From positions 64,001 through 128,000 of IMG/VR virus record IMGVR_UViG_3300029922_000015: a stretch of 64,000 nucleotides of DNA; one strand, written 5' to 3'. Positions 29,320 to 62,953 of this stretch are shown piece by piece. Each line of letters starts with the position of its first letter. Position 1 is the first letter of the stretch. The translations under genes and the position numbers were made by a program. The notes beneath the pieces are model-generated. The model saw only the letters and a program-made list of their open reading frames with translations, searched no databases and had not been told where the DNA came from. This stretch comes from a virus.

Positions 29320-29820
29320 ATGAAGAATTTTGTCGATATACGTCGTAGCTTTGGAGAGGTGATAGTTACGGCTTGTCTTCCTAGCTTGGAAGATTTTGTC
29401 AAACAAGTAAGCAAAGATGATGTTGAGAATGTATTAGATCATTGCGATACGGCGGCTCGCGCTAAGTTTTATTCGCCCGCTTTGAATTATAGTTATCGTT
29501 TTGATTATAATCGAATTTTTGGAGATTTAGGTCAACGTATAGAAAGAGAGGGATGGTTGCGCCCTCGCTATCAATGGGGCGATGTGACTCTGTGTAACGA
29601 AGAGACGTTTAATGTTGTGCCTTTTGTTAGTCGCGGCATTGGAAAGGAACAAAAACTTAAGTTTCTAGGAGTATATTCCGAAGAGGATTTAACTCGACTG
29701 TCGAAATCTTTAAAAGCTGTTATTGAATTTGCTCGCGACTATCGCCGGGAAATAACAATTCGTTGCGAAGTTGGAGATGAAAAAGAAGAAGACAGCAAGG
29801 CGATAGAAATTCAGATTTAG
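29320..29820 (+). CDS. hypothetical protein, partner X of the amidoligase-GATase module
   Basis: shares SRGI..G.(Y/F)S pattern with 34892-35410. Confidence 0.7.
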   Translation: MKNFVDIRRSFGEVIVTACLPSLEDFVKQVSKDDVENVLDHCDTAARAKFYSPALNYSYRFDYNRIFGDLGQRIEREGWLRPRYQWGDVTLCNEETFNVVPFVSRGIGKEQKLKFLGVYSEEDLTRLSKSLKAVIEFARDYRREITIRCEVGDEKEEDSKAIEIQI

Positions 29821-29821
29821 C

Positions 29822-30493
29822 ATGAAATATATTTCTAAAATTGGCCTTGAAATCGAGGGAGGATGGTTTTCGACTGAAGACAAGCCGGAAAGTCTTACAA
29901 GCTGGCATCACGACGATAGCGTTCGTAACATCCGCAAAACCCAAAACGGAGTTCCTATTCGTTTTATTGGCGAGGCGGTTTCTATACCCCTCGCGAATTT
30001 GAGCGCAGTCCACGAATGGATTAACATTTATTGGCCCGACCGTAAAAATAAGAGTTGTGGTTTTCACATTCATACTTCGTTCGTTGATCCTAAATTTTAT
30101 TGGTATCTTGTTAATGAGGATTTTTATATTCAATTTTATAAGAAAATGAAAGCGGTAGGCAATAAGCTTCACCTGTCCGCTCATTTCTTTGATAGATTAA
30201 TGGGCAAGAATGTTCACTGTCAGAAATTATTCAAGGGCCGCGAACAACTTTACGCTCTAACCAAAACAAATAATCGGTATTCTCAGCTTAATTATTGCTA
30301 CTCCTTGCACGGCACACTCGAAAATCGTTTGCCTTGCGCCATTCTTCCCATAAGGAAGGCTCAGCAATACGTTGATGAGTATATTCAATTTATCGAAAAT
30401 TATTTAGAGGCTCATCCTAAACCCGAGATTACCGAGTTTAATTGGGAAACAAAAGTTGAAGTCGAAGATGAAAATGAGAAAATTTTGTCTTGA
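29822..30493 (+). CDS. putative amidoligase (COOH-NH2 ligase) paralog 1
   Basis: GLEIEGG, DDSV, GEAVS.P, CGFHIH, TLENR. Confidence 0.85.
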   Translation: MKYISKIGLEIEGGWFSTEDKPESLTSWHHDDSVRNIRKTQNGVPIRFIGEAVSIPLANLSAVHEWINIYWPDRKNKSCGFHIHTSFVDPKFYWYLVNEDFYIQFYKKMKAVGNKLHLSAHFFDRLMGKNVHCQKLFKGREQLYALTKTNNRYSQLNYCYSLHGTLENRLPCAILPIRKAQQYVDEYIQFIENYLEAHPKPEITEFNWETKVEVEDENEKILS

Positions 30494-30530
30494 CAATTAA
30501 CGAAACAAGTGATATAATCTTAAAAAATCT

Positions 30531-31235
30531 ATGTGCCTCATTATTTATTCAAAAAGCGGTCGTCCTAAGCAAGAGTATATCGAAAATGGAGAAGCCTCCA
30601 ATGACGATGGAACGGGTATCGCGTGGATTGAAAATGGTTACTTGCGATATATCAAAGGAATCGATTTGAAGGAAACGATTAAGCTTTCTCAAGAATTGCC
30701 GCTAGGATATATTATACATTTTCGGATGGCCTCCATTGGTGGAGTAGACCCACAACTTATTCATCCCTTTCCTGTGAATGTACACGTTCCTTTGCAACAA
30801 AAGGGCAAAGCTAACAAACTATTGTTTCATAACGGACATTGGCATTCGTGGAAACAACATTTGATGGATCATCTCAGCCCTAAAGTTATTCTTCCAGAGG
30901 GTAAATGGAGCGATACGCGGGCGATTGCTCTTTTGACGGCGATTCACGGAAAGAACTTTTTGCGGACTATTGCCGACGGACAAGCCGGATGGGCGGGTAA
31001 ATTCGCTTTGATGACGCCTAGCAAAACTACTTTAATCGGTCGTTGGGAAGAAGAAGAAGGAGTATTTTATTCCAATGCTAATTATAAATGGAGCTATCAT
31101 CGCTCTAATTATAATTATTCTGGATCGGCTAGCGATCATAGTTATCACAACGGACTTCGCACGACCCACCAAGATCGTAGTTTATCGCCTCACTCTCAAA
31201 GAGAGGCGGAATATTTGCAAGGATATGATCATTAA
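30531..31235 (+). CDS. class II glutamine amidotransferase (Ntn hydrolase)
   Basis: Cys2 nucleophile, NDDG.G, HFRMASIG, HPF, HNG, SDT. Confidence 0.9.
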   Translation: MCLIIYSKSGRPKQEYIENGEASNDDGTGIAWIENGYLRYIKGIDLKETIKLSQELPLGYIIHFRMASIGGVDPQLIHPFPVNVHVPLQQKGKANKLLFHNGHWHSWKQHLMDHLSPKVILPEGKWSDTRAIALLTAIHGKNFLRTIADGQAGWAGKFALMTPSKTTLIGRWEEEEGVFYSNANYKWSYHRSNYNYSGSASDHSYHNGLRTTHQDRSLSPHSQREAEYLQGYDH

Positions 31236-31324
31236 AAAAGATCAAAAAGTTCTTGACAAAATGAGCAATAAGTAGTATTATTGTTCAAGTCAGAAAACCA
31301 AACAAACAAAAAAGAAAGGCCAAA

Positions 31325-31567: not shown

Positions 31568-31596
31568 TTGACAGATTGTTTGTAAGGTGAACCTTA

Positions 31597-31634
31597 AAAG
31601 AGAGTCAACTGATAAAACGGTTGGCTCTCTTTTT
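31597..31634 (+). terminator. intrinsic terminator
   Basis: AGAGAGTCAAC/GTTGGCTCTCT hairpin followed by a T run. Confidence 0.8.
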
Positions 31635-31650
31635 CCTTTAGTAGAAGGCT

Positions 31651-32319
31651 ATGAATAAAAGCTCTAAAATAGATCGGGTGGGGGTTGAATTAGAAGGAGG
31701 CTGGAAGCAAAACCGCCCTCAACAAAAGCACATGCATGGCGATAGTTCGGTGGAAATACCGAATTATGAGGAATTTTGTTACGATGAGGATGGGGATTTT
31801 GATATGTGCGGCGAAATAGCTAGCTCCCCATTTGCTAGTTTGCATCATCTTTCTAGATGGATTCGCGAATCTTATCCCGATACAACAAACGCTTCATGCG
31901 GTTTGCATATTCATATTAGTACCAAAAAGCAAGAAGACTATGCGCTGCTTATGCATAAGAAATTTTATAATATATTCCTTGTCGCAATGGAAAAATGGGG
32001 ACAACGGCATTGTTCCTCTAGATCGAGCGAGGATCGTTCCTTTTGGGCTCGTTTTAAAGGAAATAATGATTTTTGCGTAAGAGAACATTATCCTATCAGC
32101 CAAATTAAAGGTCAAGATGATAAATATACCCAATTAAATTTTTGCTCATGGCGAGAACATCGGACATTAGAATGTCGTTTGTTTCCAGCTTTTAAAACGG
32201 TGGATAAGAGTATTTCGGGCACGGCTTTCTTTATAAGACTTGTCGATAATTATCTTCGGACAATGAAACCTAACGATTACACAAAAAAATACTTGCAAAT
32301 TATTAATCCTAGAGTATAA
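31651..32319 (+). CDS. putative amidoligase paralog 2
   Basis: GVELEGG, DSSV, GEIASSP, CGLHIH, TLECR. Confidence 0.85.
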   Translation: MNKSSKIDRVGVELEGGWKQNRPQQKHMHGDSSVEIPNYEEFCYDEDGDFDMCGEIASSPFASLHHLSRWIRESYPDTTNASCGLHIHISTKKQEDYALLMHKKFYNIFLVAMEKWGQRHCSSRSSEDRSFWARFKGNNDFCVREHYPISQIKGQDDKYTQLNFCSWREHRTLECRLFPAFKTVDKSISGTAFFIRLVDNYLRTMKPNDYTKKYLQIINPRV

Positions 32320-32794: not shown

Positions 32795-33037
32795 ATGTCG
32801 CCAAAAATTTTATTTGATAATACTAAAGACGTGGAAGCTATTTCCACCAAACTTTTAGAGCCAAGTTCTGATGATTTAAAATTCATGGCTTCGAGATTTT
32901 CTAAAGAACAATGGGAAATCCTTTGCGCTTCTTCTAATTTCATGGATATGCTTTATAATGATTTTAATCGTTCTCGGTTTTTGGCTGAAAAAATCCTAGC
33001 GGGAAGAGGAGACACGATAAACGCGCAAAATAAATGA
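32795..33037 (+). CDS. hypothetical protein
   Basis: 80 aa ORF. Confidence 0.6.
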   Translation: MSPKILFDNTKDVEAISTKLLEPSSDDLKFMASRFSKEQWEILCASSNFMDMLYNDFNRSRFLAEKILAGRGDTINAQNK

Positions 33038-33471
33038 AGTCTTTTAATATTATTCCCGTTTCTCTATTTTCCCTCTATTGTGATTATCTTTGCAATTGGA
33101 GTGAGGGCCATTTATGTCGGGCGACGATAGAATATATTAACTTGACTTGTTCTGATTATGCAATCGGCTATGCGGCTCACGACGAAACGGGGCCAGTTTC
33201 GATTTCTATAGCCTCCAAAACCTTTCCTTTCGCCGCCATCGCTACCAGACCGGATAAAAGAGGCCAAGGGCTTGCTAAAAAGGTTCTAAAACAAACGATT
33301 AATCACTTTCGTTTAGCTGGTTTGGTTTATGAAACTTGGGTAGCGGCGGATAATCCTAGTTCTATTGTCTTGTTAGAAAGCGTGGGCTTGAGAAAAGTAA
33401 GAGAAGAGACGAAAAACCGGAGAAGTACCGGAGAATATTTAGCTTTTAAATATTCTTCAAAAAACACTTGA
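33034..33471 (+). CDS. GNAT family N-acetyltransferase
   Basis: TRPDKRGQGLA acetyl-CoA motif; DNPSSIVLLESVG. Confidence 0.85.
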   Translation: MKSFNIIPVSLFSLYCDYLCNWSEGHLCRATIEYINLTCSDYAIGYAAHDETGPVSISIASKTFPFAAIATRPDKRGQGLAKKVLKQTINHFRLAGLVYETWVAADNPSSIVLLESVGLRKVREETKNRRSTGEYLAFKYSSKNT

Positions 33472-33730: not shown

Positions 33731-33807
33731 TTTGTTAGTTAGCAAACTAACTGGTGGAGGCGGCGGGTTGACTCGCTCCTAGATGGGCTGCGCATATCTA
33801 AAACGCA

Positions 33808-34077
33808 ATGGAACGAATAATTAAACCTTCTCATGGAACTTACAGGGGATGTCCTATGTATCGGTTCTACGGAGACTATGTAAAAGGTCGTTGGATAGGC
33901 AGATATACTCGTCTTTATCCACAAGCTCTTGAGTCAATGCCTAACATTTATTTTCTTCCCGAAGTCGTTATTAAAGGTATTGCTATTTGTTGGCCGTTTA
34001 TAAAAGAAAACGGGGACAACTATACTCCCCTTAGATATGTAGAACCAAAAAATTCTATTTCTCTGTCTCCTAAATGA
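33808..34077 (+). CDS. hypothetical protein (paralog of next gene)
   Basis: FYGD..KG and WP......N..PL.Y motifs. Confidence 0.65.
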   Translation: MERIIKPSHGTYRGCPMYRFYGDYVKGRWIGRYTRLYPQALESMPNIYFLPEVVIKGIAICWPFIKENGDNYTPLRYVEPKNSISLSPK

Positions 34078-34361
34078 CTTTAACAAAGCTATTTATTAAA
34101 CCCCGGCGGATACCTTTACAAATGCATATCCATAATTTCTATGGAGATTTGGATAAGGGTTATTTTAAGCTTTATGAACGATATTTTTGCAAATCGTTTG
34201 CTTTAGAAAGAGAAGCGGAAGGATTTCGTTCGATTGTTTGGAAAATAGTTCCAATGGAGTTTAGAAATAATCCTAATTTAATTTTAGCGTGGCCTTATCA
34301 CAGAGATAAGCGAGGTAATTTTATTCCTTTACAATATTGCGAAACGATAATTAGTGCTTGA
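34074..34361 (+). CDS. hypothetical protein (paralog of previous gene)
   Basis: FYGD..KG and WP......N..PL.Y motifs. Confidence 0.65.
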   Translation: MTLTKLFIKPRRIPLQMHIHNFYGDLDKGYFKLYERYFCKSFALEREAEGFRSIVWKIVPMEFRNNPNLILAWPYHRDKRGNFIPLQYCETIISA

Positions 34362-34392
34362 CACGCGACGAATCCTTTGATAACATATTTTT

Positions 34393-34869
34393 ATGCGATA
34401 TATTGCCGACGTTCAGTATAAGTATGATCCGATTACTAATAAGGCGTCACTTTATCTTTATTCTCCGACAATAGCGGCGATGTATGAAGAAATCGGTTTC
34501 GACACTCGCAACTACGAGTCGGAAAGATATGAGCTTTTAGAATCTCTTTCTGCTTATTTAGTTAGAGGAATTTCAATTGAAAATGAACATCGATTCGAGC
34601 GGCGCGGCACGAAATACACAGTTTTTACGCAAAAATGCGCTAATTGTAATCTTTTGATTGAGTGTGATGGGGGATGGGGAGTAAATATTTCCCATATTCG
34701 AGGAGTTCTTATTGGTAAGGGTTTCAGTTATAAAATAAAGCCATTGCCCGTTGCGAAAACGGAAGCGGTTTTGATAGCTTATAGCGAAGGGGTTCGCGAG
34801 TATTATCGCGCTCTTAAAAGCCATTTAGATTTAAAAAGAAAATACGATAAAGTTCTTGACAAAGAATAA
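34393..34869 (+). CDS. hypothetical protein, possibly a remote partner-X paralog
   Basis: 158 aa leaderless ORF. Confidence 0.7.
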   Translation: MRYIADVQYKYDPITNKASLYLYSPTIAAMYEEIGFDTRNYESERYELLESLSAYLVRGISIENEHRFERRGTKYTVFTQKCANCNLLIECDGGWGVNISHIRGVLIGKGFSYKIKPLPVAKTEAVLIAYSEGVREYYRALKSHLDLKRKYDKVLDKE

Positions 34870-34891
34870 AACATAGAATAAGATCATAACA

Positions 34892-35410
34892 ATGAGTAAT
34901 AGCACTTTCGAGATTAAACGGACTCCCGATGGAACGTTGATTACGATTCAAGCCCCATCCGTGGAAAGAATTTTTCGATCCCTCGCTCGCGAAGCCCGAA
35001 ATCCTCTGGCCCTAAGCGGAATCAATGTCGATTGCTGGTGGGGCGATCAAACCGACCGATTCGTTCGTAACATGAGCGAAATTTTTGTTCACGAAGCGAC
35101 CGTTTTGAATAAAAGTAAAACGGGGGTGAAAGAGGAAGATTTGGTAGTTCCTACTTGTCGTTCTGATTATCTTTTTCAAAATAATAATGTCGGGGTTCGT
35201 TTACTAATGAGCCGAGGCATCTCTGAGAAAAAGCAATTTTTGATTCCCGGCATGTTTTCTACCGATACCATTCAAAAGGTGGCGTTGGGTTATAAAAAGG
35301 CCATGAGCTATCTTATTAAGGAAGCGGGTAAAGAAGTTGTTTATAAGTTTCAAATTGCTGAGCCCGATGACGCCGAAAAGACTCAGGTTCTTGAATTCAC
35401 TAATATCTAA
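34892..35410 (+). CDS. hypothetical protein, partner X of the amidoligase-GATase module
   Basis: similar to 29320-29820; translationally coupled to the ligase. Confidence 0.7.
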   Translation: MSNSTFEIKRTPDGTLITIQAPSVERIFRSLAREARNPLALSGINVDCWWGDQTDRFVRNMSEIFVHEATVLNKSKTGVKEEDLVVPTCRSDYLFQNNNVGVRLLMSRGISEKKQFLIPGMFSTDTIQKVALGYKKAMSYLIKEAGKEVVYKFQIAEPDDAEKTQVLEFTNI

Positions 35411-36120
35411 TGTTTCGTCATATCTCTAAAATTGGCCTTGAAATAGAAGGCGGATGGTTTACGGATAAGCGTCCCGTTGATTTTAAGCACGATAGTAGTG
35501 TGCGTTTTCATCGCCGAGACTTTAAAGTAAGAGGAAAAGAACAAACGCGCCGAATTGATTTGGGCGAAGTAGCTTCCCGTCCTTTGGAATCAATCGCGGA
35601 GTGTGCTAATTGGATTAAGACTTATTGGCCCGACAAGAAAAATGGAACGTGTGGCTTTCACATTCATATTTCGTTGAAGAATAAACTTCTTTATTCGTAT
35701 TTGATGGACAAAGAATTCAATGAAGCTTTTTTGCATTCCGCGCTTATGTTTGGACGAGCCCATAGGATGTCTCGCGATTTTTTCCATCGTTTAGAGGGTA
35801 AGAATCGTTATTGTAAGAAAATGTTTAAGCCGGAAGAACAATTGTACTTTCAGCATAATCACCAATATACCGAAAACAATCCTCGCTACGCTCAATTAAA
35901 TTATTGTTTTTCGACTCATGGAACGGTTGAAAATCGTCTTCCTACAGGAGCAATGCCGAAGGGAAAAGCTATTCGCACAGTAGAATGGTATGTAGATTTG
36001 GTAGAATCTTACCTTGATAAAAAAGAAGATAAGCCTATTTTGGTTCAAGTCGAAGGGTCTGACGAAGAAACCGAAGAAATAGACTTGACAAACTATGAAT
36101 TTGGAGTAAATAAATCTTGA
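35410..36120 (+). CDS. putative amidoligase paralog 3
   Basis: GLEIEGG, HDSSV, GEVASRP, CGFHIH, TVENR. Confidence 0.85.
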   Translation: MFRHISKIGLEIEGGWFTDKRPVDFKHDSSVRFHRRDFKVRGKEQTRRIDLGEVASRPLESIAECANWIKTYWPDKKNGTCGFHIHISLKNKLLYSYLMDKEFNEAFLHSALMFGRAHRMSRDFFHRLEGKNRYCKKMFKPEEQLYFQHNHQYTENNPRYAQLNYCFSTHGTVENRLPTGAMPKGKAIRTVEWYVDLVESYLDKKEDKPILVQVEGSDEETEEIDLTNYEFGVNKS

Positions 36121-36165
36121 CAAATTTTGGATTTTGGCTTATACTGTAGGAGAACTAAAAAATAT

Positions 36166-36981
36166 ATGTGTTTGATAATTGCAAGTAGAACTGGTCGTCC
36201 GAAAGAGGAATATATCCGAAACGGATTCGCGAATCATCCCGATGGAACTGGTATCGCGTGGTTCGAAAAAGACGGCGTTCATTATAAAAAGGGCTTGACC
36301 GTCGAAGAAACGATTACAATGTCCAAGGAATTGCCCGTTGGATACGTCATTCATTTTAGATGGGCGTCCGTAGGCGGAAAGGATAAGTCTTTGATCCACC
36401 CCTTTCCGATTTCAAAAGATGTTATTTTGCGTCCCGAAGGAACAGCGAAGTCTGTTTTGTTTCATAACGGTCATTGGGATAGTTGGAATAATGTTTTAGT
36501 TAATCACCTTTCATCCCGTTTGGTTTTGCCCACTGGAAAATGGAGCGATACGCGGGCGATTGCCTTTCTTGTATCTATTCACGGTACTCCATTCCTAAAT
36601 TTGCTAGACGTTGGCAAGTTTATTGTGATGGCGAATGGGAAGCAGTACGCTTTCGGAGATTTTCAGGAAGAAGATGGGGTTTATTACTCTAACAGTTCTC
36701 ACAAAAATTTTATCCGAGGGGGTTGCGGAACTGGATTGAACAATGGAACTTCGCGAGTCGGTACGGCATACGAGCCGATTACGCCTCGATCAACCAGACC
36801 GCCAATTTCTCAGCCGTCTCAACCTTTGTTAGGTGATACCCAAAGAATTACTCCACAAAGTAAGGTGGGCGCGGAAGAGCGCCGCGTTCTATCGGCGGAA
36901 GAGTTTCAAGAGCTTCGCGAATATTTTGAAAAGGATTTAAATAGTAATCCTATTTCCGTTTCCGCGACAGGGGGAGCTTAA
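36166..36981 (+). CDS. class II glutamine amidotransferase (Ntn hydrolase)
   Basis: start reassigned to MCLII; HPDGTG, HFRWASVG, HPF, HNG, SDT. Confidence 0.9.
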   Translation: MCLIIASRTGRPKEEYIRNGFANHPDGTGIAWFEKDGVHYKKGLTVEETITMSKELPVGYVIHFRWASVGGKDKSLIHPFPISKDVILRPEGTAKSVLFHNGHWDSWNNVLVNHLSSRLVLPTGKWSDTRAIAFLVSIHGTPFLNLLDVGKFIVMANGKQYAFGDFQEEDGVYYSNSSHKNFIRGGCGTGLNNGTSRVGTAYEPITPRSTRPPISQPSQPLLGDTQRITPQSKVGAEERRVLSAEEFQELREYFEKDLNSNPISVSATGGA

Positions 36982-41950: not shown

Positions 41951-42466
41951 GTGAACATTGTAGCTCGTCTATCCAGAATTAAGAAATGCCGTCTTGTTTC
42001 TTTAGTCTATCGTACTAAGAAAAGCGATGAACTGTCAGTTTACCTGATAGCGTTAGGCGTTGACCTTCGCAGAGCTTACGCTCGCGATGAAAAAGTAATC
42101 CGCCTAATAAAAACGCGCGGGCGCGTTCAAACCCAAGCCAAACAGGAAATCCTCGATTCCTTGCGCGAAAGTCTTCGATACGGCTTGGGCAATAACTCTC
42201 GTTATACTTGCCGGGGCGTCTATAAAACGCTTTTCAATGGCTGCAAAATTCATAGGCGCGACAAGACCATTCATTTTTATGGTTTTATAATTCGTAAAAA
42301 GATTCTTGAAGAGGGAAGCTATCCCCTTGTTCGCCATAGTGCTTTGACTCTCGCCAAAATGAAAATTCGTAAGCACATGAAAATTAATCGTTTTCGTCAA
42401 TTTGAATTGAGTCATGTAAAAAAGATAGCTTTCGAAGGAAAAGTCTTGACTTTCTCTCAATTTTAG
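41951..42466 (+). CDS. basic hypothetical protein
   Basis: 171 aa leaderless GTG-start ORF. Confidence 0.7.
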   Translation: MNIVARLSRIKKCRLVSLVYRTKKSDELSVYLIALGVDLRRAYARDEKVIRLIKTRGRVQTQAKQEILDSLRESLRYGLGNNSRYTCRGVYKTLFNGCKIHRRDKTIHFYGFIIRKKILEEGSYPLVRHSALTLAKMKIRKHMKINRFRQFELSHVKKIAFEGKVLTFSQF

Positions 42467-42480
42467 GGTATTATCGCTTT

Positions 42481-43131
42481 ATGCTTAGCAATTTTAAATA
42501 CATTGATAAGGTCGGGTGCGAGCTTGAAGGGGCTTTTTTAAATATTCCCGATCCCGATAACAAATTCCTCGACCACGTAAAAGGAGAAGGAATGTCAATT
42601 TCTCCCGAGGAAAGGGCTATTATCAACGAAAAGAAACTTGTTGTTGGTGAGCGAAATAGCGAACCCTATAAAGCCCTTCTTCCCTTGCGCAAATGGGTGC
42701 GAAAGTTCTGGCCGGAAGTTGTAAATAATTCCAACGGCTTTCACGTTCACGTTTCGTTTAAAGACCCTTCCGTTCGCTCAACAATCGTTGCGTCCGCCGA
42801 CTTCCATCGAACCTTTATCGAAGAATGCAAGAAATTTGTTCTTTCGCCAAAGTATCGTTTTAGTAAGAGCGTAATTGATAGGGCGGCTCATAATATTTAT
42901 GGTCATCATTATCATTCCACCGGAGACAGGCGTTCGGGCGTGACTCCTTTTGCGGATTATGATACCAGTGAATTTCGTATTTTCTCCGGCGATATGACAG
43001 CGAAGCAAGCAAACCTTTGTTTGACTTGGCTTGTATCGTTTATTGAGAATTACTTTGAGGAACATGAACAAGCAACTGTTTGTGATAAGGCGCGGGTTGT
43101 TTATCACTCCTTCTCGGGACAACAAATCTAA
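42481..43131 (+). CDS. putative amidoligase paralog 4
   Basis: GCELEG, GERNSEP, GFHVHVS, TSEFRIF. Confidence 0.8.
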   Translation: MLSNFKYIDKVGCELEGAFLNIPDPDNKFLDHVKGEGMSISPEERAIINEKKLVVGERNSEPYKALLPLRKWVRKFWPEVVNNSNGFHVHVSFKDPSVRSTIVASADFHRTFIEECKKFVLSPKYRFSKSVIDRAAHNIYGHHYHSTGDRRSGVTPFADYDTSEFRIFSGDMTAKQANLCLTWLVSFIENYFEEHEQATVCDKARVVYHSFSGQQI

Positions 43132-43168
43132 TGCTTGACAAGCTCTAAATCTCGTGTCAAAATGAATT

Positions 43169-43417
43169 ATGGACAGACCTTTTAAAGTTGGCGATTACGT
43201 TCGAATCATCGCGCCGCATTCTGCGATCCAGAAGCACTATAATAAATTGAAGTTTACCGAGAAGGGCAAGATGCTCCTTTCTAAAGACGAAATAGCGGCA
43301 CAGATTGGTATCATCAAGAACAACGAGAGCGGCGAGCTAAGAATCGCGCCCATCATTCATGGCGTTTTGGCCGATTGGACTATCGGTTGTTATGATAATG
43401 AAATTACTTTGGTATGA
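43169..43417 (+). CDS. hypothetical protein (KOW/SH3-like FKVGD start)
   Basis: 82 aa leaderless ORF. Confidence 0.6.
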   Translation: MDRPFKVGDYVRIIAPHSAIQKHYNKLKFTEKGKMLLSKDEIAAQIGIIKNNESGELRIAPIIHGVLADWTIGCYDNEITLV

Positions 43418-43998
43418 GCAAATCTAGAAAAAGATACATTAATGCAATGGGCTGCGAAATGGAGGGTGGATTTCGTTATCCTCTAGGCTATCCTATTTAC
43501 GGGGAAGGCGTTGATGTACCCGAAGGAGAGATGTGCATTAATGGCGAAGAACTAGAAGTTAGAGTCGGAGAGGTTCAATCCAAGCCGTTCTTTCGTAAAG
43601 ATTTACTTAAGCATTGGGTAAAGAGATATTTCCCTGTTATAACTAACGATGATTGTGGATTTCACATTCACGTTTCCTTCAAACAGGATAATTGGCATGA
43701 CGCTTTAGCTAACGAAAAGTTTAATAACGATTTTCTTCGCGATTTGAAGCGTTGGCTTAAGAATAAAAAGGTCAGTAAAGCCTTTCAAGCGCGTCTAGAC
43801 GATGAAAACGATTATTGCCGACACGAATTTGAAGGTTTTGAGCGCGGCGCGGTGCATTGTCATTCGGAACACGGAACAATTGAATTTCGTATCTTTTCAA
43901 TGGTAATTACTCCCAAGCTCGCGCAACAATGCGTCGATTGGACTTTTAATTACGTTGAACGTTACTTGCATAAACTACTGAAAAATGGAAACTCCTAA
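43414..43998 (+). CDS. putative amidoligase paralog 5
   Basis: GCEMEGG, GEVQSKP, CGFHIHVS, GTIEFRIF. Confidence 0.82.
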   Translation: MSKSRKRYINAMGCEMEGGFRYPLGYPIYGEGVDVPEGEMCINGEELEVRVGEVQSKPFFRKDLLKHWVKRYFPVITNDDCGFHIHVSFKQDNWHDALANEKFNNDFLRDLKRWLKNKKVSKAFQARLDDENDYCRHEFEGFERGAVHCHSEHGTIEFRIFSMVITPKLAQQCVDWTFNYVERYLHKLLKNGNS

Positions 43999-44656: not shown

Positions 44657-45109
44657 ATTATATGGCTCGCAAACAAATCGATCCCGACAAGAAAGTCCCC
44701 TTCGTTTCAATGACGCTTTCCTCTTTATCTCCGAAGCGAATTGTAATGCCGCTTGACGAGTTAAGGTTGCGCCGAAAGATAAAGAATCTTCTACTTAGCG
44801 GTGAAAAGATTAAATTAGAGCGGGTGGATTTTTCTCCTAACGAATATGAAAATTTGGAAAGTCTGAGTTGATTATGGCAAATAAAAAGAAAATAACTAAT
44901 TCGGATTTGGCTGAGCGCGTGTCCGAATTGCAAAAGGAAGAAAGTTATACGGTCAAAATTCCTGCTTATGTTATGGCTTACATTCAAAGAGGATGGAGCG
45001 CGGAACTAAAGAAATATAAAGCCGCCTTTTCTCCCGAAGTAGCAATTCAGGCAATCGTGCGCGTGGAAGCTAATCGAATTTTGCAAGAAGAATTAAAATT
45101 GGAAAATGT

Positions 45110-45847
45110 TTAATTATATTGCCATTTAAATCCCATCGCGCTTCTAAGAATATAAGCACCTTGAGCGTTTTTACATATATAGCCTTTGCAGACTTTAGTA
45201 ATCGCGCTACATTGATTGAACTTTCCAAACGAATAAGCTGCTTCTTTAGCAGAGGGCCAGATTTTAATTATTTTCCCTGTTTTTTTATCAATTTGTTGGA
45301 CAGCCTTAGCCCCAATACCTTTATGAAGTTCGGATAATTTTTTCCTTGTTGCTTTAGTATGATGTCTACCGAACATTGGATTATTTTTTCCTGAAAATCT
45401 TTGTCGATTTAAATTTCCTATTAATATTTTTGTCTCCTCGGTGTGTGCTTTACCATAAAAGGGATTTTTTATTCCTTTCATACTTTCGGACATTCTTTGG
45501 CGTTCTTTTTTAGAGGCTTTTCTTCCGGTCGTATCGTTTGAGAAAGTACATATATTATATCCTATTTTTTGATTAGTAGAATTTAATTTCTTGATCCATT
45601 CGGTTTCTATTTTCAATAATTTTTCATTCTCAATTTGATCAAAGCTTTCCAAAATGGAAACCTCAAAATTTTCCCAACCATATTTATAAATAGCATAAGA
45701 TACTGGATGATTTTTTGTAGGAGTTTTTTCATAATGTCGATAGCAACGCATTCTTTCACGAATGCGAACCGACTTTCCAACATAAACTTTCCCATTAATT
45801 TTGTTAGTTAAAAGGTAGATTCCCGGTTTTGAAGTTATTTCGCTCAT
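45110..45847 (-). CDS. GIY-YIG homing endonuclease with NUMOD3/NUMOD1 repeats
   Basis: GIY..NKINGKVYVG; NPFYGKAHTEETK; IWPSAKEAA; inverted within a + strand block. Confidence 0.92.
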   Translation of the reverse strand: MSEITSKPGIYLLTNKINGKVYVGKSVRIRERMRCYRHYEKTPTKNHPVSYAIYKYGWENFEVSILESFDQIENEKLLKIETEWIKKLNSTNQKIGYNICTFSNDTTGRKASKKERQRMSESMKGIKNPFYGKAHTEETKILIGNLNRQRFSGKNNPMFGRHHTKATRKKLSELHKGIGAKAVQQIDKKTGKIIKIWPSAKEAAYSFGKFNQCSAITKVCKGYICKNAQGAYILRSAMGFKWQYN

Positions 45848-45927
45848 GTTAATGATTACACTCTTATTCTTGAATTAGAAGGATTTTTCTTGACTTAACA
45901 CAGATTTTAGGTTACTATAAGAAGGAT

Positions 45928-46584
45928 ATGATTGGGAATAATGTCGATAAAATCGGAGTCGAATTAGAGGGCTATTGGAAGCATAATCCAAGCGGTTTTC
46001 GCATTCATGGCGATAGCAGTATAGAGCTAAGCTCTATTCGCGAGCGCCGTCTTAGGCGAGACAATACCAATCCTCATCCTCGCGGCACCGTTGGCGAAAA
46101 ATCCAGTCCTGTTTTTGCAACTTTAAACGATCTTAAGGTTTGGCTATTTCGAGAATATCCTCATCGGCGCAATTTCTCTTGTGGGTTTCATATCAACATT
46201 TCACTGTCTAATCCCACTTTGTTGCAGGAGTGCAACGTTAGGTATATCCATGATGCAATGATTAAGGCTATTTTGCGTTATGGAAAGATCAAGCGTTTGG
46301 GCCGTGCCTTTAAACAACGGGCTACGCCAAGCGCAGAGTATTCTGATATTCGATACGATAGCCAAGATAAATATCGCGCTATTAATTGGTCTAAAACGTA
46401 TAATGATACTCCTTATTTGGAATTTAGGATTTTTTCTCAATCGATGCCGAAAGAAAAGGCGATGAACGCCGTATGTTTTTTGTGCGAGCTTATGAATTTG
46501 GTTGCGGAGTTAGTTAAAGATGTTAATATGTCTCGGGAAGATAGATCAAAGAAGATAATGTTATTTGGTAAGAATTTGCGCTAA
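45928..46584 (+). CDS. putative amidoligase paralog 6
   Basis: GVELEG, HGDSSI, GEKSSP, CGFHINIS, LEFRIF. Confidence 0.82.
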   Translation: MIGNNVDKIGVELEGYWKHNPSGFRIHGDSSIELSSIRERRLRRDNTNPHPRGTVGEKSSPVFATLNDLKVWLFREYPHRRNFSCGFHINISLSNPTLLQECNVRYIHDAMIKAILRYGKIKRLGRAFKQRATPSAEYSDIRYDSQDKYRAINWSKTYNDTPYLEFRIFSQSMPKEKAMNAVCFLCELMNLVAELVKDVNMSREDRSKKIMLFGKNLR

Positions 46585-48922: not shown

Positions 48923-49201
48923 ATGAACAAGGAGTATAAAGTAACAAGCAAGGGATGGTTTTATTTTTGTCCGATTTATCTAGAACAAGGGTGGGCTGAA
49001 AATCTCGCGCCGACTATTATTCCAAGGTTCCAAGGAACTGATTGGCTTTTGAATCTGGCTACGGAGTTTCAACAAGCCATGAATTTAGTTTTAAGTGTTT
49101 TTAATCCAGATGCGGGCGGATTCCTTATTCTAGAAACCGAACGATTTGACAAACCTAAGATTATCACAATATCCATAGACGATGAAAGCAACGATATCTG
49201 A
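48923..49201 (+). CDS. hypothetical protein
   Basis: start MNKEYKV. Confidence 0.6.
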   Translation: MNKEYKVTSKGWFYFCPIYLEQGWAENLAPTIIPRFQGTDWLLNLATEFQQAMNLVLSVFNPDAGGFLILETERFDKPKIITISIDDESNDI

Positions 49202-50090
49202 AGATAAACGAGTTTCTTTGATTCTAGAATCTCAATCGGAAGTGGATCAACTTTATGCCTTTTTCAATTCTCCTCGTATTACTCGCGTTCTTAAATTAGA
49301 CAGTCGGGCATATCAAACATTAGAAACATATACCAAATTAGACCTTTATAATTATTTATCGAGGATTTTAATAGCATGAAATCGATACAAGAAATTACAA
49401 TTAATCCGTTTAAGAGGGTGGCGCTTGTTTTTGAAAGCCCTGAAGAAGTTGATAAAATTTACGCGCTTCTCAATCACGAGAAAATGACGAAAGCGGTTGG
49501 CATGGACTTTTCTAAAGTAAAAGATGCCCTTGCTCCCTATGCGAATCCAACAGAAGCGGCGGCTTGGCACCAACGCTTAAACGTTTTGATAAAAAAATGA
49601 TTGGCGCGAAACAAAAGATAGCGGGCTCCGACTCTCCTCTTGTCGCTTTGATTCTGGAAACGCCAGAAGAAATCGAACAAATAGGCGCGTTGATTAGCCG
49701 TAAGGTGATTGTCGAAGCTCTCGATTTAAGAAAGCACGTTCGTTGCAAGGGCGACAATGGGAAATATTTGCCATATCTTTTGTTAGAGCCCTTTTTGCCC
49801 AAAGCTGATCTTTTTAATAAAGTTCAAAATAGACTCGAACCTTTATTTCAATAATGTTCGCAACTCAAGATTCTAAAACTAAACTTGTTTCTTTGATTTT
49901 AGAAAGTCAATCGGAAGTAGACACGATGGGGATGTTTTTTAATAATCTAAGAATAGCTCAAACACTCGGATTGCGAACAAGTGATGGCGTTTGGCTTTAC
50001 GGTAAATTATTTCATGCTTTTTGTACGGGGCGAGCTTATACTATAGCGGGGGATAGTCCAAGTTCAAGATTAAATAAACTTATTTACTAA
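49182..50090 (+). other. four tandem paralogous small genes (49182-49379, 49376-49600, 49597-49854, 49854-50090)
   Basis: shared V(S/A)L(I/V)(L/F)E(S/T)..E(V/I)(D/E) motif. Confidence 0.75.
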
Positions 50091-53584: not shown

Positions 53585-53722
53585 TTACACATATTCCCAT
53601 TTAAATCCGTGTGATTTATATTTAGGTTTGTCTAATCCCGCTTTTCTTCGATTACAGAATTCCGAAATACAACTTCTATCGAAACCTAAATTCCTACTTG
53701 CTTCGTGAGCCGAAGACCAAAT
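53585..53722 (-). pseudogene. NUMOD1-type homing endonuclease C-terminal remnant
   Basis: IWSSAHEASRNLG..SCISEFC..HGFKWEY, no start codon; resembles the C-terminus of 45110-45847. Confidence 0.7.
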
Positions 53723-53782
53723 TTACTATCAAATTTCAAAAAATTTCTTGACAATATGTAAACTTTCCTTAATAATTACACT

Positions 53783-54034
53783 ATGCGTCCAGAATTAGTT
53801 TATCCTTCCGAAGAAAATCCGGTTTATTGTCATGATTGCAAGGAACATATCAGGGAAAATGATTTGTTTGGACGTTTTCGCGGCCAATGGACTATTTTGT
53901 ATTGCGCTAAGTGTTTCGGTACTTATTGCGACAAAGAAATGGATTATAATCATCCAGAGATTGTTAAATTGATGGAAATGAAACTAAACTCTAATCGGCG
54001 TTACACAGAGGAAGATTTAATAAAGAAATATTAA
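53783..54034 (+). CDS. small zinc-finger protein
   Basis: CHDC...YCAKC. Confidence 0.65.
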   Translation: MRPELVYPSEENPVYCHDCKEHIRENDLFGRFRGQWTILYCAKCFGTYCDKEMDYNHPEIVKLMEMKLNSNRRYTEEDLIKKY

Positions 54035-54077
54035 AAAAAGATTTGACAAGGCGCGTATCCTGTGAGATCATTAACTC

Positions 54078-54830
54078 ATGAACTCGAAAATCCGCTTTGG
54101 AGTTGAAATTGAAGGGGGATGGAAAAACGCCTCTAAAATTACTTCTCTCATCAAAGATGACGGATCGGTTATTATACCGGAATACTCTTCCCTCTATTCC
54201 ATTTTCACGGGGCGCGGACATCTTACTCCAAGAGAAAAAGCCCAAATTATTAAAGCAAAACCTAGCAATCTTTGTGGTGAGGTAGCGAGTCCGGTTTTCA
54301 ATACGTTGCCTCAATTCAAACGGTGGACTCGGCGCGTTTATCCCGACGCCACAAACGCTACTTGTGGTTTGCATATCCATGTTTCTTTCCCCCGTCTTAT
54401 AGATTATGCGACATTAATGACACGCAGTTTTAATAGTCGCTTTTTGTCAGAAATAAATCGGTTTGGAGAGAATTTTGTTGATAAAGACGAAGCGATGGCC
54501 AAAATTTATTGGGATCGTTTCTTTAACAAAAATAGTTATTCTTTAAAAAAGTTCTGCCCTCTTGGAACTTTGCAAAACGATGCGGGACATAAATATCGTT
54601 TCATTAATTACGGAGCTTTTACTTATACTGATAGAAAGCGAACGTTCGAATGTCGGTCTTTTCCGGCTTTTAATCAGCGAGGATTGGCGGAAAAGGCCGT
54701 TGAATTGTTTTTGAAATTGTGTGAGGATTATATCGCGGAATTTGCTAATCCCGAAGACCCGGAAATCGTGTTGAATATGCAAGTCCTCAAAAGGTATCTT
54801 TCACCCGATGAGTCTTTAAATAAGGAATAA
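54078..54830 (+). CDS. putative amidoligase paralog 7
   Basis: FGVEIEGG, DDGSV, GEVASP, CGLHIHVS, TFECR. Confidence 0.87.
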   Translation: MNSKIRFGVEIEGGWKNASKITSLIKDDGSVIIPEYSSLYSIFTGRGHLTPREKAQIIKAKPSNLCGEVASPVFNTLPQFKRWTRRVYPDATNATCGLHIHVSFPRLIDYATLMTRSFNSRFLSEINRFGENFVDKDEAMAKIYWDRFFNKNSYSLKKFCPLGTLQNDAGHKYRFINYGAFTYTDRKRTFECRSFPAFNQRGLAEKAVELFLKLCEDYIAEFANPEDPEIVLNMQVLKRYLSPDESLNKE

Positions 54831-58590: not shown

Positions 58591-59568
58591 TGAATGTCGA
58601 ACCTCCTATAACAAAATCTATTTCCAAAAAACAGTTACTTAAGGAATCAATCGATAAAAGAGATTCCATTGCGCGTTTTAAGATCGGGCTGACTGTTATG
58701 TCTTTTCAAGAATTAGATGAATCGGAGATGAGTTTTCTGAAAATTCCTTTAATAATGAAAAGCTTGGACGATTGGCTGGATTTTTTGAACGAACAAGTCG
58801 AAAAAGGTATTGACAAGTCATAAACCGTATAATACAATTATCGCATGGCTAGAATTATAGTTTATATTATGATGACCGCCTCTTGGATTATGATCGTCGG
58901 CGGCGCGATTATAATGCTTGTCAGTTGTGGTTTTTGTATCAAAGATATTCTATATGTGCTCACCAGACTCTAAACAATTCTATCTGAATTATTGCGCGGG
59001 ATTGGTTGTTTTAGACCCGATTGGCGAAGATATTTACTTTTTTGAGCCTTGCATTAAGCATAAGAACGCAACAATCTTTAGTATCAATATGATTTTGGGA
59101 TTTTATGAGCGATGGAAAGGCGTGCCCGAGATAATCAATTCTCTTCGCGTTTTTAATATGCCAATTGAATTGTTTATTCAGCAATTAAAATAAATTTGAC
59201 AAACAAGAGTTGGTTTCCGATTAACGCTCGCAAAATCGTCTGTGATCAAGGAACATAGAGCAATCTATTAATCATTAAAAAGTGGCGTGGGAGAAAATTC
59301 GTAGCATTTTCGTTTGTACCACTAAACTCTGTAGATAAAGAATTCCTTTCATCCAAGAAAATAACAGGAATCGATATCAAAATGTCCAAAGTTGAGATGG
59401 AGATTCAATAATGACCGCGAGCCTTGTTTGTTCAGATTGCCAAGAAAAGGTTATTGAAACGATGGTCGGCAAGCCCGCATCTAAAGCTTTCTATTGTCCG
59501 TTTTGTGATGATTTTGTCAGACCTAAAAAGAGCTTGACATCGAACGAAACCGAACCTATAAAGGAATA

Positions 59569-59895
59569 ATGGCTGATAATTATTTTATGGTTTACCGAGC
59601 GAAACCTCCCTTTGAGGTATTTAAAGGGGTGCGGTTTGGGCGCGTTGATTACGCTGGTGCTTCGCACAATCAACAAGATTGCGAGCGATTAGTTACGGCT
59701 TTGAACGGCGGCAAACCTAGGGGTTTTAAAGCCAACGTCACTAGCGCGGCGCTCAAGATTCTCCAAAAGAACTTGGAGAACGTTTTGTTTGAGCCCGCGA
59801 AGGTATTTCCGCCCGATGGCATCGCAAAGATTCCCGATGTTTTTACCGTGACTTACGATTCGCTTATTGATGAATTGCAGGAGGTTTACACATGA
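59569..59895 (+). CDS. hypothetical protein
   Basis: leaderless 108 aa ORF. Confidence 0.65.
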   Translation: MADNYFMVYRAKPPFEVFKGVRFGRVDYAGASHNQQDCERLVTALNGGKPRGFKANVTSAALKILQKNLENVLFEPAKVFPPDGIAKIPDVFTVTYDSLIDELQEVYT

Positions 59896-61062
59896 TTATT
59901 GTTATAGTAATGTTGGTTATTATTAACATCGCATTCGTTTTGTTGGTAAGTGAAAGCCAGAGCGAGGTAAAGCATTTGAAGGCATTGAACGAATCTTATA
60001 AAGATTATAATCAAATTTGGCGCGATTTAGCTGAGCAACGATTAGATACCATCGCGAAAAGAAACTTTGAAATTGTTAAATTAATTAGAAAGTTGCAAAA
60101 ATATGGATTGGATAAAGAAAAGTGAAAATTTCTCTTGACACGACATAAATCGTATGCGATGATGTTATCCACACGCTAGACAAAAGGAGAATCCATCATG
60201 AAGTAAACTAACATCATTATAAGCAACGGTTAAGAGATTATGAGATTGTAGGCAGTAACTTAAAGAACTAGATAAGGATACAATGAAGCCTCCGTAGCTA
60301 TAAAACAAATTTAAGATTAAAGATAGAGTATAATGAAAAGTTAGTTGGTTAGTTGTTGAGACGCGCTGTTGGAATTCCGAGCCAATGGCGCGTCTCTTGT
60401 TAAAGAAATTTATGGATAGTGTTTATCAAATTTTAGACGTGGAATTTAATCGCAAGAATGGATTTCGCAAGGGGATAGGCCAATATTTTCGAGTCGCGCC
60501 TCAATATGCTCACGTTCTAGTGGTTCAAGCGCAATCGGCGCACGGTCGCATCTATAATGATTGGGCCGAATTTAAGGCGGATAACGAAAGTAGTTTTAAT
60601 TAAAATTTTATGCCCAAAACTTCGCTGTCCCTAATTAAAAGGATTGGCGAGTTTCGGGCTCTCTTTAGAAAACAATAATGAATAATCCAAACCCTCAATA
60701 TTATGTGGCTGTTGCTCAAGCGGATATCGGATTTACGTTGAAGATCATTGTAAATCTAACAACGAGAACTGCGAGGATTTTTTCTTTAGAACAAGCTGTC
60801 AAAGAATGTCGGGCGCAACAACGGTCGGGCGTTGTCGCAACTTATCTTCCGGTTGTATAATATGAATGATCTTGCTAAATCATTAGAGAAGCTAATCAAG
60901 ATGATAGGCGAAAAGACTTGGGTTGATGGATATGAACTTAGATCGGGAATTCACGGAGATGAAGTTTGGGCTAATAAACAAGAAGCCAGCGATTTCTTTG
61001 AAGCCGAAAAGAATTTAAAAGATTATCTTGACAATCAATAGATCGTATATTATTATAACGAT

Positions 61063-61386
61063 ATGGAAAATGCTTCCCTTCTTAATGCCAGCGATAAGAG
61101 ATGGCTTCCGTCTTTTCAAGAAACGGCTGAGCGTTTGGGCGTCGAATATCAAATCTCAATCGAGCCTTACGAGGATAATTATAATCTAACTATTCGTTTT
61201 GAGTTGAATGGTATGAAGCACACAGAAGTTAATTTCAAGCAGGCTACCGAAGAACTGGAAGATTGGGCCGATGGATATCATTCGCGTAAGATTGAAGCAG
61301 AAGCCTATCGGCGAGATGAGCTAGAAGCGTTTGGCGATATGGCAAGCGAATTCGCTGAGCCCGAACCAGAACATCCCGAATTTTAA
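61063..61386 (+). CDS. acidic hypothetical protein
   Basis: leaderless 107 aa ORF. Confidence 0.65.
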   Translation: MENASLLNASDKRWLPSFQETAERLGVEYQISIEPYEDNYNLTIRFELNGMKHTEVNFKQATEELEDWADGYHSRKIEAEAYRRDELEAFGDMASEFAEPEPEHPEF

Positions 61387-61912
61387 TTTATGAGCTTAAA
61401 AAGAGACATAAAAAAAGTTTATCGCAAGGTAAAACGCGCAATAAAAAAGGTAGATAATCAAAACTCTTTGGAGTTTGCTTTGCTGAAACTTCAATTGCGT
61501 AATTTGGAAAGGATGATGTAATGCGAAACATTCCCCGATTTGTTTGTAGTTTGCTTAATCACGATTATATACGGATAGACTACAATTCTAAACATCATCG
61601 TCATATCGAGCTTTGTAAATGTTGCGGCGATAGGCGCATCTCCATGAATTTCAGCGAGTTAATTAAAATGGATTTGACGCCAAAGAATTAGCTTGACATC
61701 TTCTTAATTTAAGGTTATTCTAATTTTAACATGAATCTTATTGTTTGGCTTTGTCTGTTTCCGATTTGTTGGTCGCTTTGTAATTTTATTGACGCTCTTC
61801 GTTATACAATTATAGGCGTCGAAGTGGATAATAAAAGCACCTATGCTATAGCGGTCGGAATTGACGTGTTGATTTTTTTCGTAATTTATTTCACTGTGGC
61901 TTTTCATCTAGC

Positions 61913-62224
61913 ATGAAACAATTTCTAGTCATTCAAAACAAGGAAAAGTATCCTTGGCTCAAGGGACATAAATCGCCGCCGGACGAATACCAAACGCCTT
62001 CGATTGGCGTTTACGTTCCTCAGTGGAAAGAATATTTGCTTAGAGTTGACGGCTCGGACGAAGAATATCGCACGCAGGAACAAATTGAAGAGAAATACGG
62101 GGAAACACATACTGTTTTTTATTTTGATTCCCTAACGGAATTAGCCAAAGAATTTATAACGCAAGGTTGGAAAGAATACGTTGACGATAAAGCAAACGAT
62201 TTTAATATTACGCATCAAGATTAA
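61913..62224 (+). CDS. hypothetical protein
   Basis: 103 aa ORF. Confidence 0.65.
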   Translation: MKQFLVIQNKEKYPWLKGHKSPPDEYQTPSIGVYVPQWKEYLLRVDGSDEEYRTQEQIEEKYGETHTVFYFDSLTELAKEFITQGWKEYVDDKANDFNITHQD

Positions 62225-62230
62225 TAAAAT

Positions 62231-62953
62231 ATGAGCACATTCAAAGCCGTGGGAATTGAAATTGAAGGGGGATGGAAGAACGTAGAACGAGTAGCTAAAT
62301 GGTTTAAAAGCGATTCGAGCGCCGTTGTGCCGGGGTATCAACATGTTCATAATCTTCATAAAGGGGATTACTTGATCAATCCTCCTAAAACGCCTGTTAG
62401 CGGAGAAGTTAATAGCGAGCCTTATGCTCAAACAGGCTCATTACACAGTTGGATTGAACGCGCTCATCCCGATGGCGTAGCCGACACTTGCGGCGTTCAC
62501 ATTCATACTTCTTTTAATACTTTGACGGATTATGCTAAGATTATGACGGAAACGTTTTATAATCGCCTAACTGCCCGTATGATGCGTTTTGGGAATGAAG
62601 AGGTAAACGGTAAGGATGCGGCGGAAACATCGTTCTGGCGGCGTTTTTGGGGTTTTAACGGCTATTCTCAGCGCGGGTTCGTCCATGTTCTTTATGGAAA
62701 TAAGAATTGGGGCGTTAATTACGGAGCTTTTAGAGGGGATAACGAAGGGCTTCGTAAATATAAAACGTTTGAAATGAGAATCTTTCCTTCGTTTGCGCGG
62801 GCCGAAACAACGCACAAAGGGGTCGAAGCTTATCTCGAAGTGATTAACGAAACCTTAAACGAGCACCCGCCTTTTCAGCCAGAGATTGAAGTGGCTTTGA
62901 AAAATCTAAAAGGTTTACATTCCGATGTAGCTAGGTTGATTCCCGAAAAATAA
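62231..62953 (+). CDS. putative amidoligase paralog 8
   Basis: GIEIEGG, SDSS, GEVNSEP, CGVHIHTS, TFEMRIF. Confidence 0.85.
   Translation: MSTFKAVGIEIEGGWKNVERVAKWFKSDSSAVVPGYQHVHNLHKGDYLINPPKTPVSGEVNSEPYAQTGSLHSWIERAHPDGVADTCGVHIHTSFNTLTDYAKIMTETFYNRLTARMMRFGNEEVNGKDAAETSFWRRFWGFNGYSQRGFVHVLYGNKNWGVNYGAFRGDNEGLRKYKTFEMRIFPSFARAETTHKGVEAYLEVINETLNEHPPFQPEIEVALKNLKGLHSDVARLIPEK

Follow-up and report, generated by a model that had tools for sequence, protein, structure and literature searches.

The DNA analysed here is a 64,000-nt stretch (the window) that corresponds to bases 64001-128000 of the 149,934-bp linear IMG/VR virus record IMGVR_UViG_3300029922_000015, the completeness of which was estimated by CheckV to be 75%. 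The window contains eight open reading frames (ORFs) on the + strand encoding small proteins of 194-250 amino acids (aa) that carry the sequence motifs of amidoligases. An ORF was found at every start that had been proposed in an initial annotation of the window, based on the sequence alone. The eight paralogs, named p1 to p8 in their order along the + strand, are listed below, together with the clade of each one in the phylogenetic tree and its setting, either solo or within one of two three-gene cassettes.

29822-30493, + strand: amidoligase p1, 223 aa; clade A; cassette 1
31651-32319, + strand: amidoligase p2, 222 aa; clade C; solo
35410-36120, + strand: amidoligase p3, 236 aa; clade A; cassette 2; copy used for the structure model
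42481-43131, + strand: amidoligase p4, 216 aa; clade B; solo
43414-43998, + strand: amidoligase p5, 194 aa; clade B; solo; located after an 82-aa ORF (43169-43417)
45928-46584, + strand: amidoligase p6, 218 aa; clade B; solo; Asn replaces the second His of H-x-H
54078-54830, + strand: amidoligase p7, 250 aa; clade C; solo
62231-62953, + strand: amidoligase p8, 240 aa; clade C; solo

The eight proteins can be aligned over their whole length, with pairwise identities of 22-45%, and 16 columns of the alignment are invariant (M1, G8, E10, E12, G13, G50, E51, S54, W66, P72, G80, H82, S86, R125, E167 and R169; the numbering of ligase residues is that of p1). The motifs G.E.EG, GE..S, G.H.H and E.R, from which the initial annotation had deduced the relationship, were seen across all eight paralogs, p6 reading HIN as described there. 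The longer motif GE..S.P was correct for its GE..S part in all copies, but its Pro is displaced by one residue in p6 and p7. A profile built from the eight proteins and searched against every stop-to-stop ORF of the record retrieved the same eight only (E 1e-69 to 1e-89; the next best ORF had E 0.12), and an all-against-all BLAST of the ORFs of the record returned an identical eight-member component. No ninth copy was found by either search in any ORF of the 149,934-bp record. Because profile and BLAST retrieve exactly the same eight ORFs, chance similarity is excluded, and it is confirmed that they form one paralogous family.

The assignment of this family to Amidoligase_2 (PF12224), with a fold like that of glutamine synthetase (GS) and glutamate-cysteine ligase (GCL), was borne out by Pfam, hhalign, structure modelling and comparison with BFVD. 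PF12224 was the sole recurrent Pfam match, and a weak one (seven of the eight copies were counted as matching in one tally): p3 scored 24.9 bits, above the 22-bit gathering cut-off, and p6 (21.9), p2 (21.5), p4 (20.3), p5 (17.3) and p7 (16.2) scored below it. In the wider family, 75 of the 111 aligned members individually matched PF12224 (E<=0.01). The profile of the eight paralogs, run against 1.84 billion representatives, reached 3,118 clusters at E<=1e-3 (645 at E<=1e-30), mostly proteins of 200-260 aa. When compared by hhalign with the annotated 385-aa amidoligase of Pseudomonas phage UFV-P2, the family aligned with 91.6% probability (E 8e-7), with the motifs in register and spanning the first ~210 residues of the UFV-P2 protein; in PHROGs, only two amidoligase matches were obtained, both weak.

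The AlphaFold2 model of p3, the one paralog modelled, was calculated from a 111-sequence alignment and had a mean predicted local distance difference test score (pLDDT) of 91.6 and a predicted template modelling score of 0.86. Compared with 48,161 solved chains, its top 19 matches were all GS, GCL, gamma-glutamyl-amine synthetase or PafA/Dop (Z 7.4-9.9 over 157-181 residues), after which the matches fell to guanidino kinases at Z 6.0. Foldseek gave GS and GCL throughout the top rows against the PDB, although with weak E-values, and against BFVD the named matches were nearly all phage 'amidoligase' (probability 1.0). The paralogs are thus a minimal, divergent branch of Amidoligase_2 with the GS/GCL fold. 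The ligase profiles found nothing in the PDB but a chance match to a designed protein; tblastn against 50,697 GenBank phage records gave no match for p2 (E<=1e-3) or p3 (E<=1), megablast of 18 kb against GenBank phages found nothing, IMG/VR single-protein scans with p5 and p7 did not find close relatives, and PADLOC reported nothing meaningful.

In GS, the residues of the two-metal, acyl-phosphate site follow one another as E-x-E, E, H-x-H, R, E-x-R. On the strands of the p3 model, the catalytic residues of the paralogs are arranged as E-x-E, G-E, H-x-H, R, E-x-R; only the second His departs from this, p6 and its orthologue having Asn instead. Residues E10, E12, E51, H82, R125, E167 and R169 are invariant in p1-p8 and in the 111 relatives, and the paralogs can be said, as the initial annotation had it, to have intact catalytic residues, in that no copy lacks the metal-binding Glu set, the first His or either Arg. 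On the basis of motif order and fold, we infer that the active site of the paralogs is equivalent to that of GS.

Two copies depart from this pattern at other positions. In p6 and its orthologue P0070, besides the change of the second His to Asn, Asn132 is replaced by Ala and Thr172 by an aromatic residue, and p4 and its orthologue are altered at the D-S-S-V and Cys81 positions. Such changes might be taken to mean that some copies, above all those of the p6 clade and possibly also p4, are pseudo-enzymes without catalytic activity and work as binding or regulatory subunits. We consider this improbable, given the invariant Glu, His and Arg residues just mentioned and given that the changes are kept between orthologues at 43-52% identity, which suggests altered function and not decay. 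Since the oddities of p6 and p4 are common to their orthologues, they appear to be clade traits under selection.

Two of the ligases, p1 and p3, belong to duplicated three-gene cassettes with the gene order Up, ligase and class-II N-terminal nucleophile (Ntn) glutamine amidotransferase (GATase). The remaining six (p2 and p4-p8) are solo ligases without a GATase or Up gene. The association with amidotransferases known from phage clusters is therefore present within the window, where two class-II GATase-like genes directly follow p1 and p3. The partner genes are as follows.

29320-29820, + strand: Up1, 166 aa; first gene of cassette 1
30531-31235, + strand: GATase 1, 234 aa; Met-Cys start; class-II (Ntn) GATase-like
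34892-35410, + strand: Up3, 172 aa; first gene of cassette 2; its stop overlaps the start of p3
36166-36981, + strand: GATase 3, 271 aa from the Met-Cys start; the mechanical ORF begins at TTG 36127

GATase 1 and GATase 3, the only two GATase genes of the record, are 54% identical to each other, and M1 and C2 are invariant in 20 GATase homologues, both window copies included. The GATase model has an Ntn fold (pLDDT 83, and >90 in the core), for which Foldseek returned the GlmS glutaminase domain, EgtC and PurF (E 5e-6 to 4e-4, probability 1.0). The sequence alignment with PurF is weak but in register, and the H-x-R...G-G, H-N-G and S-D-T motifs line up. The Pfam cut-offs of GATase_2, GATase_4, GATase_6 and GATase_7 were not reached, the best score being 11.2 bits for GATase_4 (cut-off 23) in one copy only; because of this, the proteins are called class-II GATase-like and placed outside any Pfam family.

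Up1 and Up3, likewise the only two Up genes of the record, have no Pfam or PHROG match, and BLAST gives no link between them. By hhalign, however, the two proteins and their orthologues match the upstream-gene family with 98.6% probability, and in 15 other viral loci a member of this family of 140-200 aa proteins is encoded just upstream of the ligase. Moreover, in the 343-aa metagenomic protein P0073 a ligase (residues 1-187) and an Up domain (residues 203-334) are fused in one chain, which argues for Up being a component of the enzyme rather than a substrate. When the longer members of the ligase family were scanned for fusions, no Pfam domain besides the ligase was found, and the Up fusion was the only one. 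Up is a partner family not described before. The possibilities that Up is a degenerate ligase or a degenerate GATase were rejected at this sensitivity (hhalign 0.3% and 0.1%, respectively), as were its identity with UFV-P2 ORF22 and with the C-terminal half of long amidoligases, to which there is no similarity. Look-alikes among condensation domains of nonribosomal peptide synthetases in the ESM Atlas were sub-threshold and came with a poor model of Up itself (pLDDT 0.36), and were not used.

The occurrence of ligase and GATase side by side bears on the original proposal for phiEco32-type clusters (Iyer et al., 2009, to the extent that it is quoted in PMC10580990), namely remodelling of the envelope, in which peptidoglycan or some other surface polymer would be amidated or receive added peptides, the blocking of superinfection being one conceivable purpose. 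The chemistry to be expected of a ligase and a GATase would be glutamine-dependent amidation of a carboxylate, which would suit such a role, as would the several envelope-type sugar genes of the phage. Nevertheless, eight diverged enzymes exceed the needs of one envelope modification, and no signal peptide or membrane segment was noticed in the alignments, although no formal prediction was made. The remaining genes of the phiEco32/LUZ24 module, those for a type-2 COOH-NH2 ligase, an ATP-grasp enzyme and GGACT, were not found either: searches for ATP-grasp (RimK) and GGACT/AIG2, which gave matches in control genomes, failed in the ~75%-complete record, and the type-2 COOH-NH2 ligase PF14395 had no match in the record, but none in the control genomes either. 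Envelope remodelling is therefore regarded as quite unlikely.

The putative promoters of the region were searched as TTGACA-N16-18-TATAAT with at least 10 of 12 matches, and the + strand between 27 and 64 kb was compared with the other strand. The + strand has 30 such sites against eight on the - strand, and every site with at least 11 matches falls on the + strand. This supports the view that the segment is an early region that would be read by the host RNA polymerase. At 17 of the 30 sites, an ORF start codon lies 5-7 nt past the -10 hexamer (exactly 6 nt at 13 sites), a distance from which leaderless mRNAs are predicted; in agreement with this, most genes of the 27-64 kb region lack a Shine-Dalgarno sequence. 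The sites related to the ligases and their partners are the following.

29285-29313, + strand: promoter-like site of cassette 1, TTGACA-N17-TAATAT; ends 6 nt before the Up1 ATG; leaderless mRNA likely
30490-30518, + strand: predicted sigma-70-type promoter of GATase 1; perfect 12/12 match
34856-34884, + strand: promoter-like site of cassette 2; 7 nt before the Up3 ATG
36117-36145, + strand: promoter-like site of GATase 3; 11/12 match
42446-42474, + strand: strong promoter-like site of p4, TTGACA-N17-TATAAT-like; ends 6 nt before the ATG
43135-43163, + strand: promoter-like site of the 82-aa ORF before p5
54043-54071, + strand: strong promoter-like site of p7, TTGACA-N17-TATAAT-like; ends 6 nt before the ATG

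The arrangement of these sites shows that the cassette ligases are probably co-transcribed with Up, and that each GATase has its own, very strong predicted promoter. It had been suggested in the initial annotation that several of the ligases have their own promoter. This holds for p4 and p7, but p1 and p3 are second genes behind the Up promoters and p5 lies behind the 82-aa ORF, while p2, p6 and p8 have no site with at least 10 of 12 matches directly upstream.

The position of the ligases in this early, host-promoter region, and not beside replication genes, also speaks against a role of ligases and GATases in the hypermodification of DNA or nucleotides, in which amino-acid or amide groups would be added to a modified base. 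Amidoligase and glutaminotransferase genes of unknown role do accompany 5-HMUDK and aGPT-Pplase genes in viral contigs (Lee et al., 2021; PMC8989533), and the phage has sugar-nucleotide and glycosyltransferase genes in addition. However, no homologue of thymidylate synthase/dUMP hydroxymethylase (PF00303) was detected in the ~75%-complete record by a search that matched in the control genomes, and we judge hypermodification to be very unlikely. Tet_JBP and aGPT-Pplase3 had no match in the record, nor in the controls; 5-HMUDK and aGPT-Pplase1/2 were not searched for.

Every paralog has a closer relative on other contigs than within the window. The closest relatives are as follows.

p1: P0019, 63% identity
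p2: P0001 and P0002, 52-53% identity
p3: P0017, 53% identity
p4: P0114, 42% identity
p5: P0108 and P0025, 40-42% identity
p6: P0070, 51% identity
p7: P0027, 43% identity
p8: P0107, 47% identity

Since each paralog is closer to an outside orthologue than to the other paralogs in the window, the expansion appears to be old and maintained. Gene order is conserved as well: a contig of 171.5 kb (L029) is syntenic with the window for Up1-p1-GATase 1-p2-downstream gene and for Up3-p3-GATase 3, with identities of 37-67%, and a contig of 25.7 kb (L039) carries p4-like and p6-like genes. In a maximum-likelihood tree of 83 rows, the window copies fall into three groups, A (p1 and p3, that is, the cassette copies), B (p4, p5 and p6) and C (p2, p7 and p8), and every paralog is placed beside its own orthologues. 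A tree in which A, B and C with their orthologues were forced into one clade was not rejected (log-likelihood 45 units above that of a quick free search; P value of the approximately unbiased test 0.945), so that one in-lineage expansion is plausible. Purifying selection, which the initial annotation had presupposed, was supported by dN/dS values of 0.13-0.27 between paralogs and orthologues where computable; dN against orthologues was 0.31-0.56, and in eight of 11 orthologue pairs dS was saturated and dN/dS could not be computed. Taken together, these comparisons make it plausible that the expansion took place within one lineage of large uncultured phages, and that it is old and has been maintained.

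The same divergence is relevant to the possibility that the genes are auxiliary metabolic genes (AMGs), which make or recycle small gamma-glutamyl or amide metabolites in nitrogen or thiol metabolism. GCL, gamma-glutamyl-amine synthetases and pairs of the EgtA/EgtC type all belong within the fold family. Published predictions for the function of phage amidoligases comprise cell-wall modification, secondary metabolites and nitrogen AMGs, and phage amidoligase and GATase genes have been annotated as AMGs (PMC10945688; PMC10580990), but these claims rest on annotation. Eight paralogs that are separately conserved and share 22-45% identity fit many substrates better than one pathway, and no gene resembling gamma-glutamyl cyclotransferase or glutathione synthetase was found in the record. 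A purely metabolic role thus seems unlikely.

In order to place the number of copies in context, a scan of IMG/VR was considered that had been seeded with one narrow motif and is therefore not a census. It returned 27 other records, all with the ligase: a single copy in 25 of them, a split copy in one and five copies in another. The last of these (G001) is a complete 121-kb phage in which three of the five copies are part of tandem Up-ligase-GATase cassettes; because its copies are placed elsewhere in the tree, its expansion appears to be independent. The ligase adjoins a GATase in nearly all of the 27 records, and several of them also have the phiEco32-type second ligase (PF14395) and an ATP-grasp gene, in the gene order published for LUZ24-like phages. 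It had been asked in the initial annotation whether such copy numbers might be routine in large phages; the five copies of G001 go some way in this direction, but the single copy of 25 of the 27 records does not. Eight copies are unusual, but probably not unique.

The explanation that we favour, with a probability of roughly 60%, is that p1-p8 are minimal ATP-dependent ligases derived by an old, lineage-specific expansion from an Up-ligase-GATase cassette, and that they act on different substrates early in infection. The starting point would have been a cassette of Up, ligase and class-II GATase such as is carried once by many smaller phages. The whole cassette would have been retained by p1 and p3, and p2 and p4-p8 would be solo ligases in two further clades, all eight being presumably transcribed from the early strand rich in host promoters. 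Each ligase would activate a carboxylate as an acyl-phosphate at the metal site formed by the E-x-E, GE, H-x-H and E-x-R residues, and would then join it to an amine. In the cassettes, the Ntn hydrolase with its Cys2 may supply ammonia from glutamine, resulting in glutamine-dependent amidation, or may instead trim a gamma-glutamyl amide as EgtC does, and Up would be an accessory subunit of the ligase. The substrates probably differ between paralogs, because the variable loops and some near-invariant positions are different.

From the above data we infer ligase activity, diverse substrates and a part in host takeover. On account of their early-gene position and diversification, the ligases may be target-specific enzymes for host takeover or anti-defence, as the initial annotation had suggested. 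A bolder version, which we regard as unlikely, is that they constitute a battery of early, separately promoted minimal ligases serving as effectors, each of which modifies a different host protein, immune signal or metabolite, with Up as the targeting or activating subunit.

Several points weigh against the explanation that we favour. The record is incomplete (~75%, CheckV). The Pfam scores are weak, p3 alone being above the gathering cut-off and p1 and p8 having no PF12224 match, and the equivalence with the GS active site rests on motif order and fold, because no solved structure is a sequence relative. The mechanism outlined for the cassettes is not transferable to six of the copies, in which GATase and Up are absent, and the p6 clade, which has lost Asn132 and Thr172 as well as the second His, may be something other than a standard ligase. 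In addition, the clade evaluated by the approximately unbiased test was chosen after the tree had been viewed, and a search of the literature found no experimental substrate or biochemical data for any phage amidoligase.

Pairs of amidoligase and GATase have appeared in the annotations of many podophages since 2009, and are encountered here in hundreds of metagenomic clusters. Eight small, intact and distinct enzymes, with and without partners, form a ready-made set for biochemical work, in which cassette copies can be compared with solo ones and standard active sites with altered ones, and being short, single-domain enzymes they should express easily. Should the copies prove to modify different host targets, they would represent a class of early phage effectors not known before; should they all yield small metabolites, the expansion would amount to a metabolic curiosity.

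Some further features of the phage were observed among and around the ligase genes; where the virus record (G000) is indicated, coordinates are those of the complete record, and otherwise those of the window. A GNAT-family acetyltransferase gene is located between p2 and cassette 2 (33034-33471, + strand) and has a syntenic counterpart on L029 (12276-12707); GNAT-fold enzymes are also able to form amide bonds. A GIY-YIG/NUMOD3 homing endonuclease gene lies antisense between p5 and p6 (45110-45847, - strand), with a paralog at G000 53636-54346. Three consecutive paralogous small ORFs (65-78 aa), with an N-terminal motif like L-I-L-E-S-Q-S-E-V-D, are found between p6 and p7 (49182-50090, + strand). 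On L039 (7438-10660), the p4 orthologue directly follows a phosphoribosyl-pyrophosphate-synthetase-like and a NAMPT-like gene that resemble the phage NAD+ reconstitution pair Adps/Namat, and NADAR, TROVE (Ro-like), RlaP and metallophosphatase genes are close by. The sugar-nucleotide genes of the phage encode GDP-mannose 4,6-dehydratase, a DegT-type aminotransferase, and glycosyltransferases of families GT9 and GT1 (G000 28256-29464, 45094-46179 and 58740-59921; window 19719-20795), a set that suggests an amino-deoxy-sugar pathway.

At the other end of the window, 33 tRNA genes for nearly all amino acids are interspersed with ORFs (1440-17542, - strand), and a tmRNA with its own tag peptide is found within this array region (4739-5120). 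The array also contains a DUF559/REase_MTES_1575 endonuclease-like gene (2884-3753, - strand) and three members (4054-4746, 14068-14841 and 16858-17424, - strand) of a five-member paralog family, the other two of which are located at G000 7064-7612 and 42625-43251; one member has a weak, sub-threshold match to the MATH domain. A replication module outside the window (G000 33736-36321) includes a DnaE-type DNA polymerase III alpha subunit with <=30% identity to any cultured phage; DnaB, primase and class I ribonucleotide reductase are also encoded, and the phage is far from cultured relatives.

The GS/GCL-like COOH-NH2 ligases of phages and plasmids, that is, the PF12224 family, were reportedly recognized by Iyer, Abhiman, Burroughs and Aravind in 2009. 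The window ligases are like Amidoligase_2 proteins in their fold and in the order of their catalytic motifs, but are only ~200-250 aa long, compared with 265-700 aa for the named phage proteins, and because of this shorter length they contain only the Amidoligase_2 core. They are also related by fold to GS, GCL (YbdK and GshA) and PafA/Dop, their best solved structural matches, at 10-18% identity, but lack an N-terminal beta-grasp domain and give no sign of forming oligomeric rings. Their residue order is the one to be expected for the two-metal acyl-phosphate mechanism of GS. The similarity to PafA/Dop extends to the fold (Z 8.1-8.2); no Pup-like gene was identified, although tag-like ORFs were not searched for systematically. 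The window GATases share the Met-Cys start and the Ntn fold with the GlmS glutaminase, PurF and EgtC, but differ from class-II GATase domains in being stand-alone proteins of ~190 ordered residues followed by a disordered tail.

The closest parallel in gene arrangement is the early module of LUZ24/phiEco32-like phages (e.g. ORF21-ORF29 of UFV-P2), where an Amidoligase_2 gene followed by a class-II GATase gene is likewise found among the early genes. In the window, this adjacency is limited to p1 and p3, there are eight ligases instead of one, and the upstream gene belongs to a different family, Up not matching UFV-P2 ORF22. While pairs of amidoligase and GATase were already known in phages, the minimal branch of the ligase family, the Up partner, the combination of two cassettes with six solo ligases, and the plausibly old, lineage-specific expansion are new.

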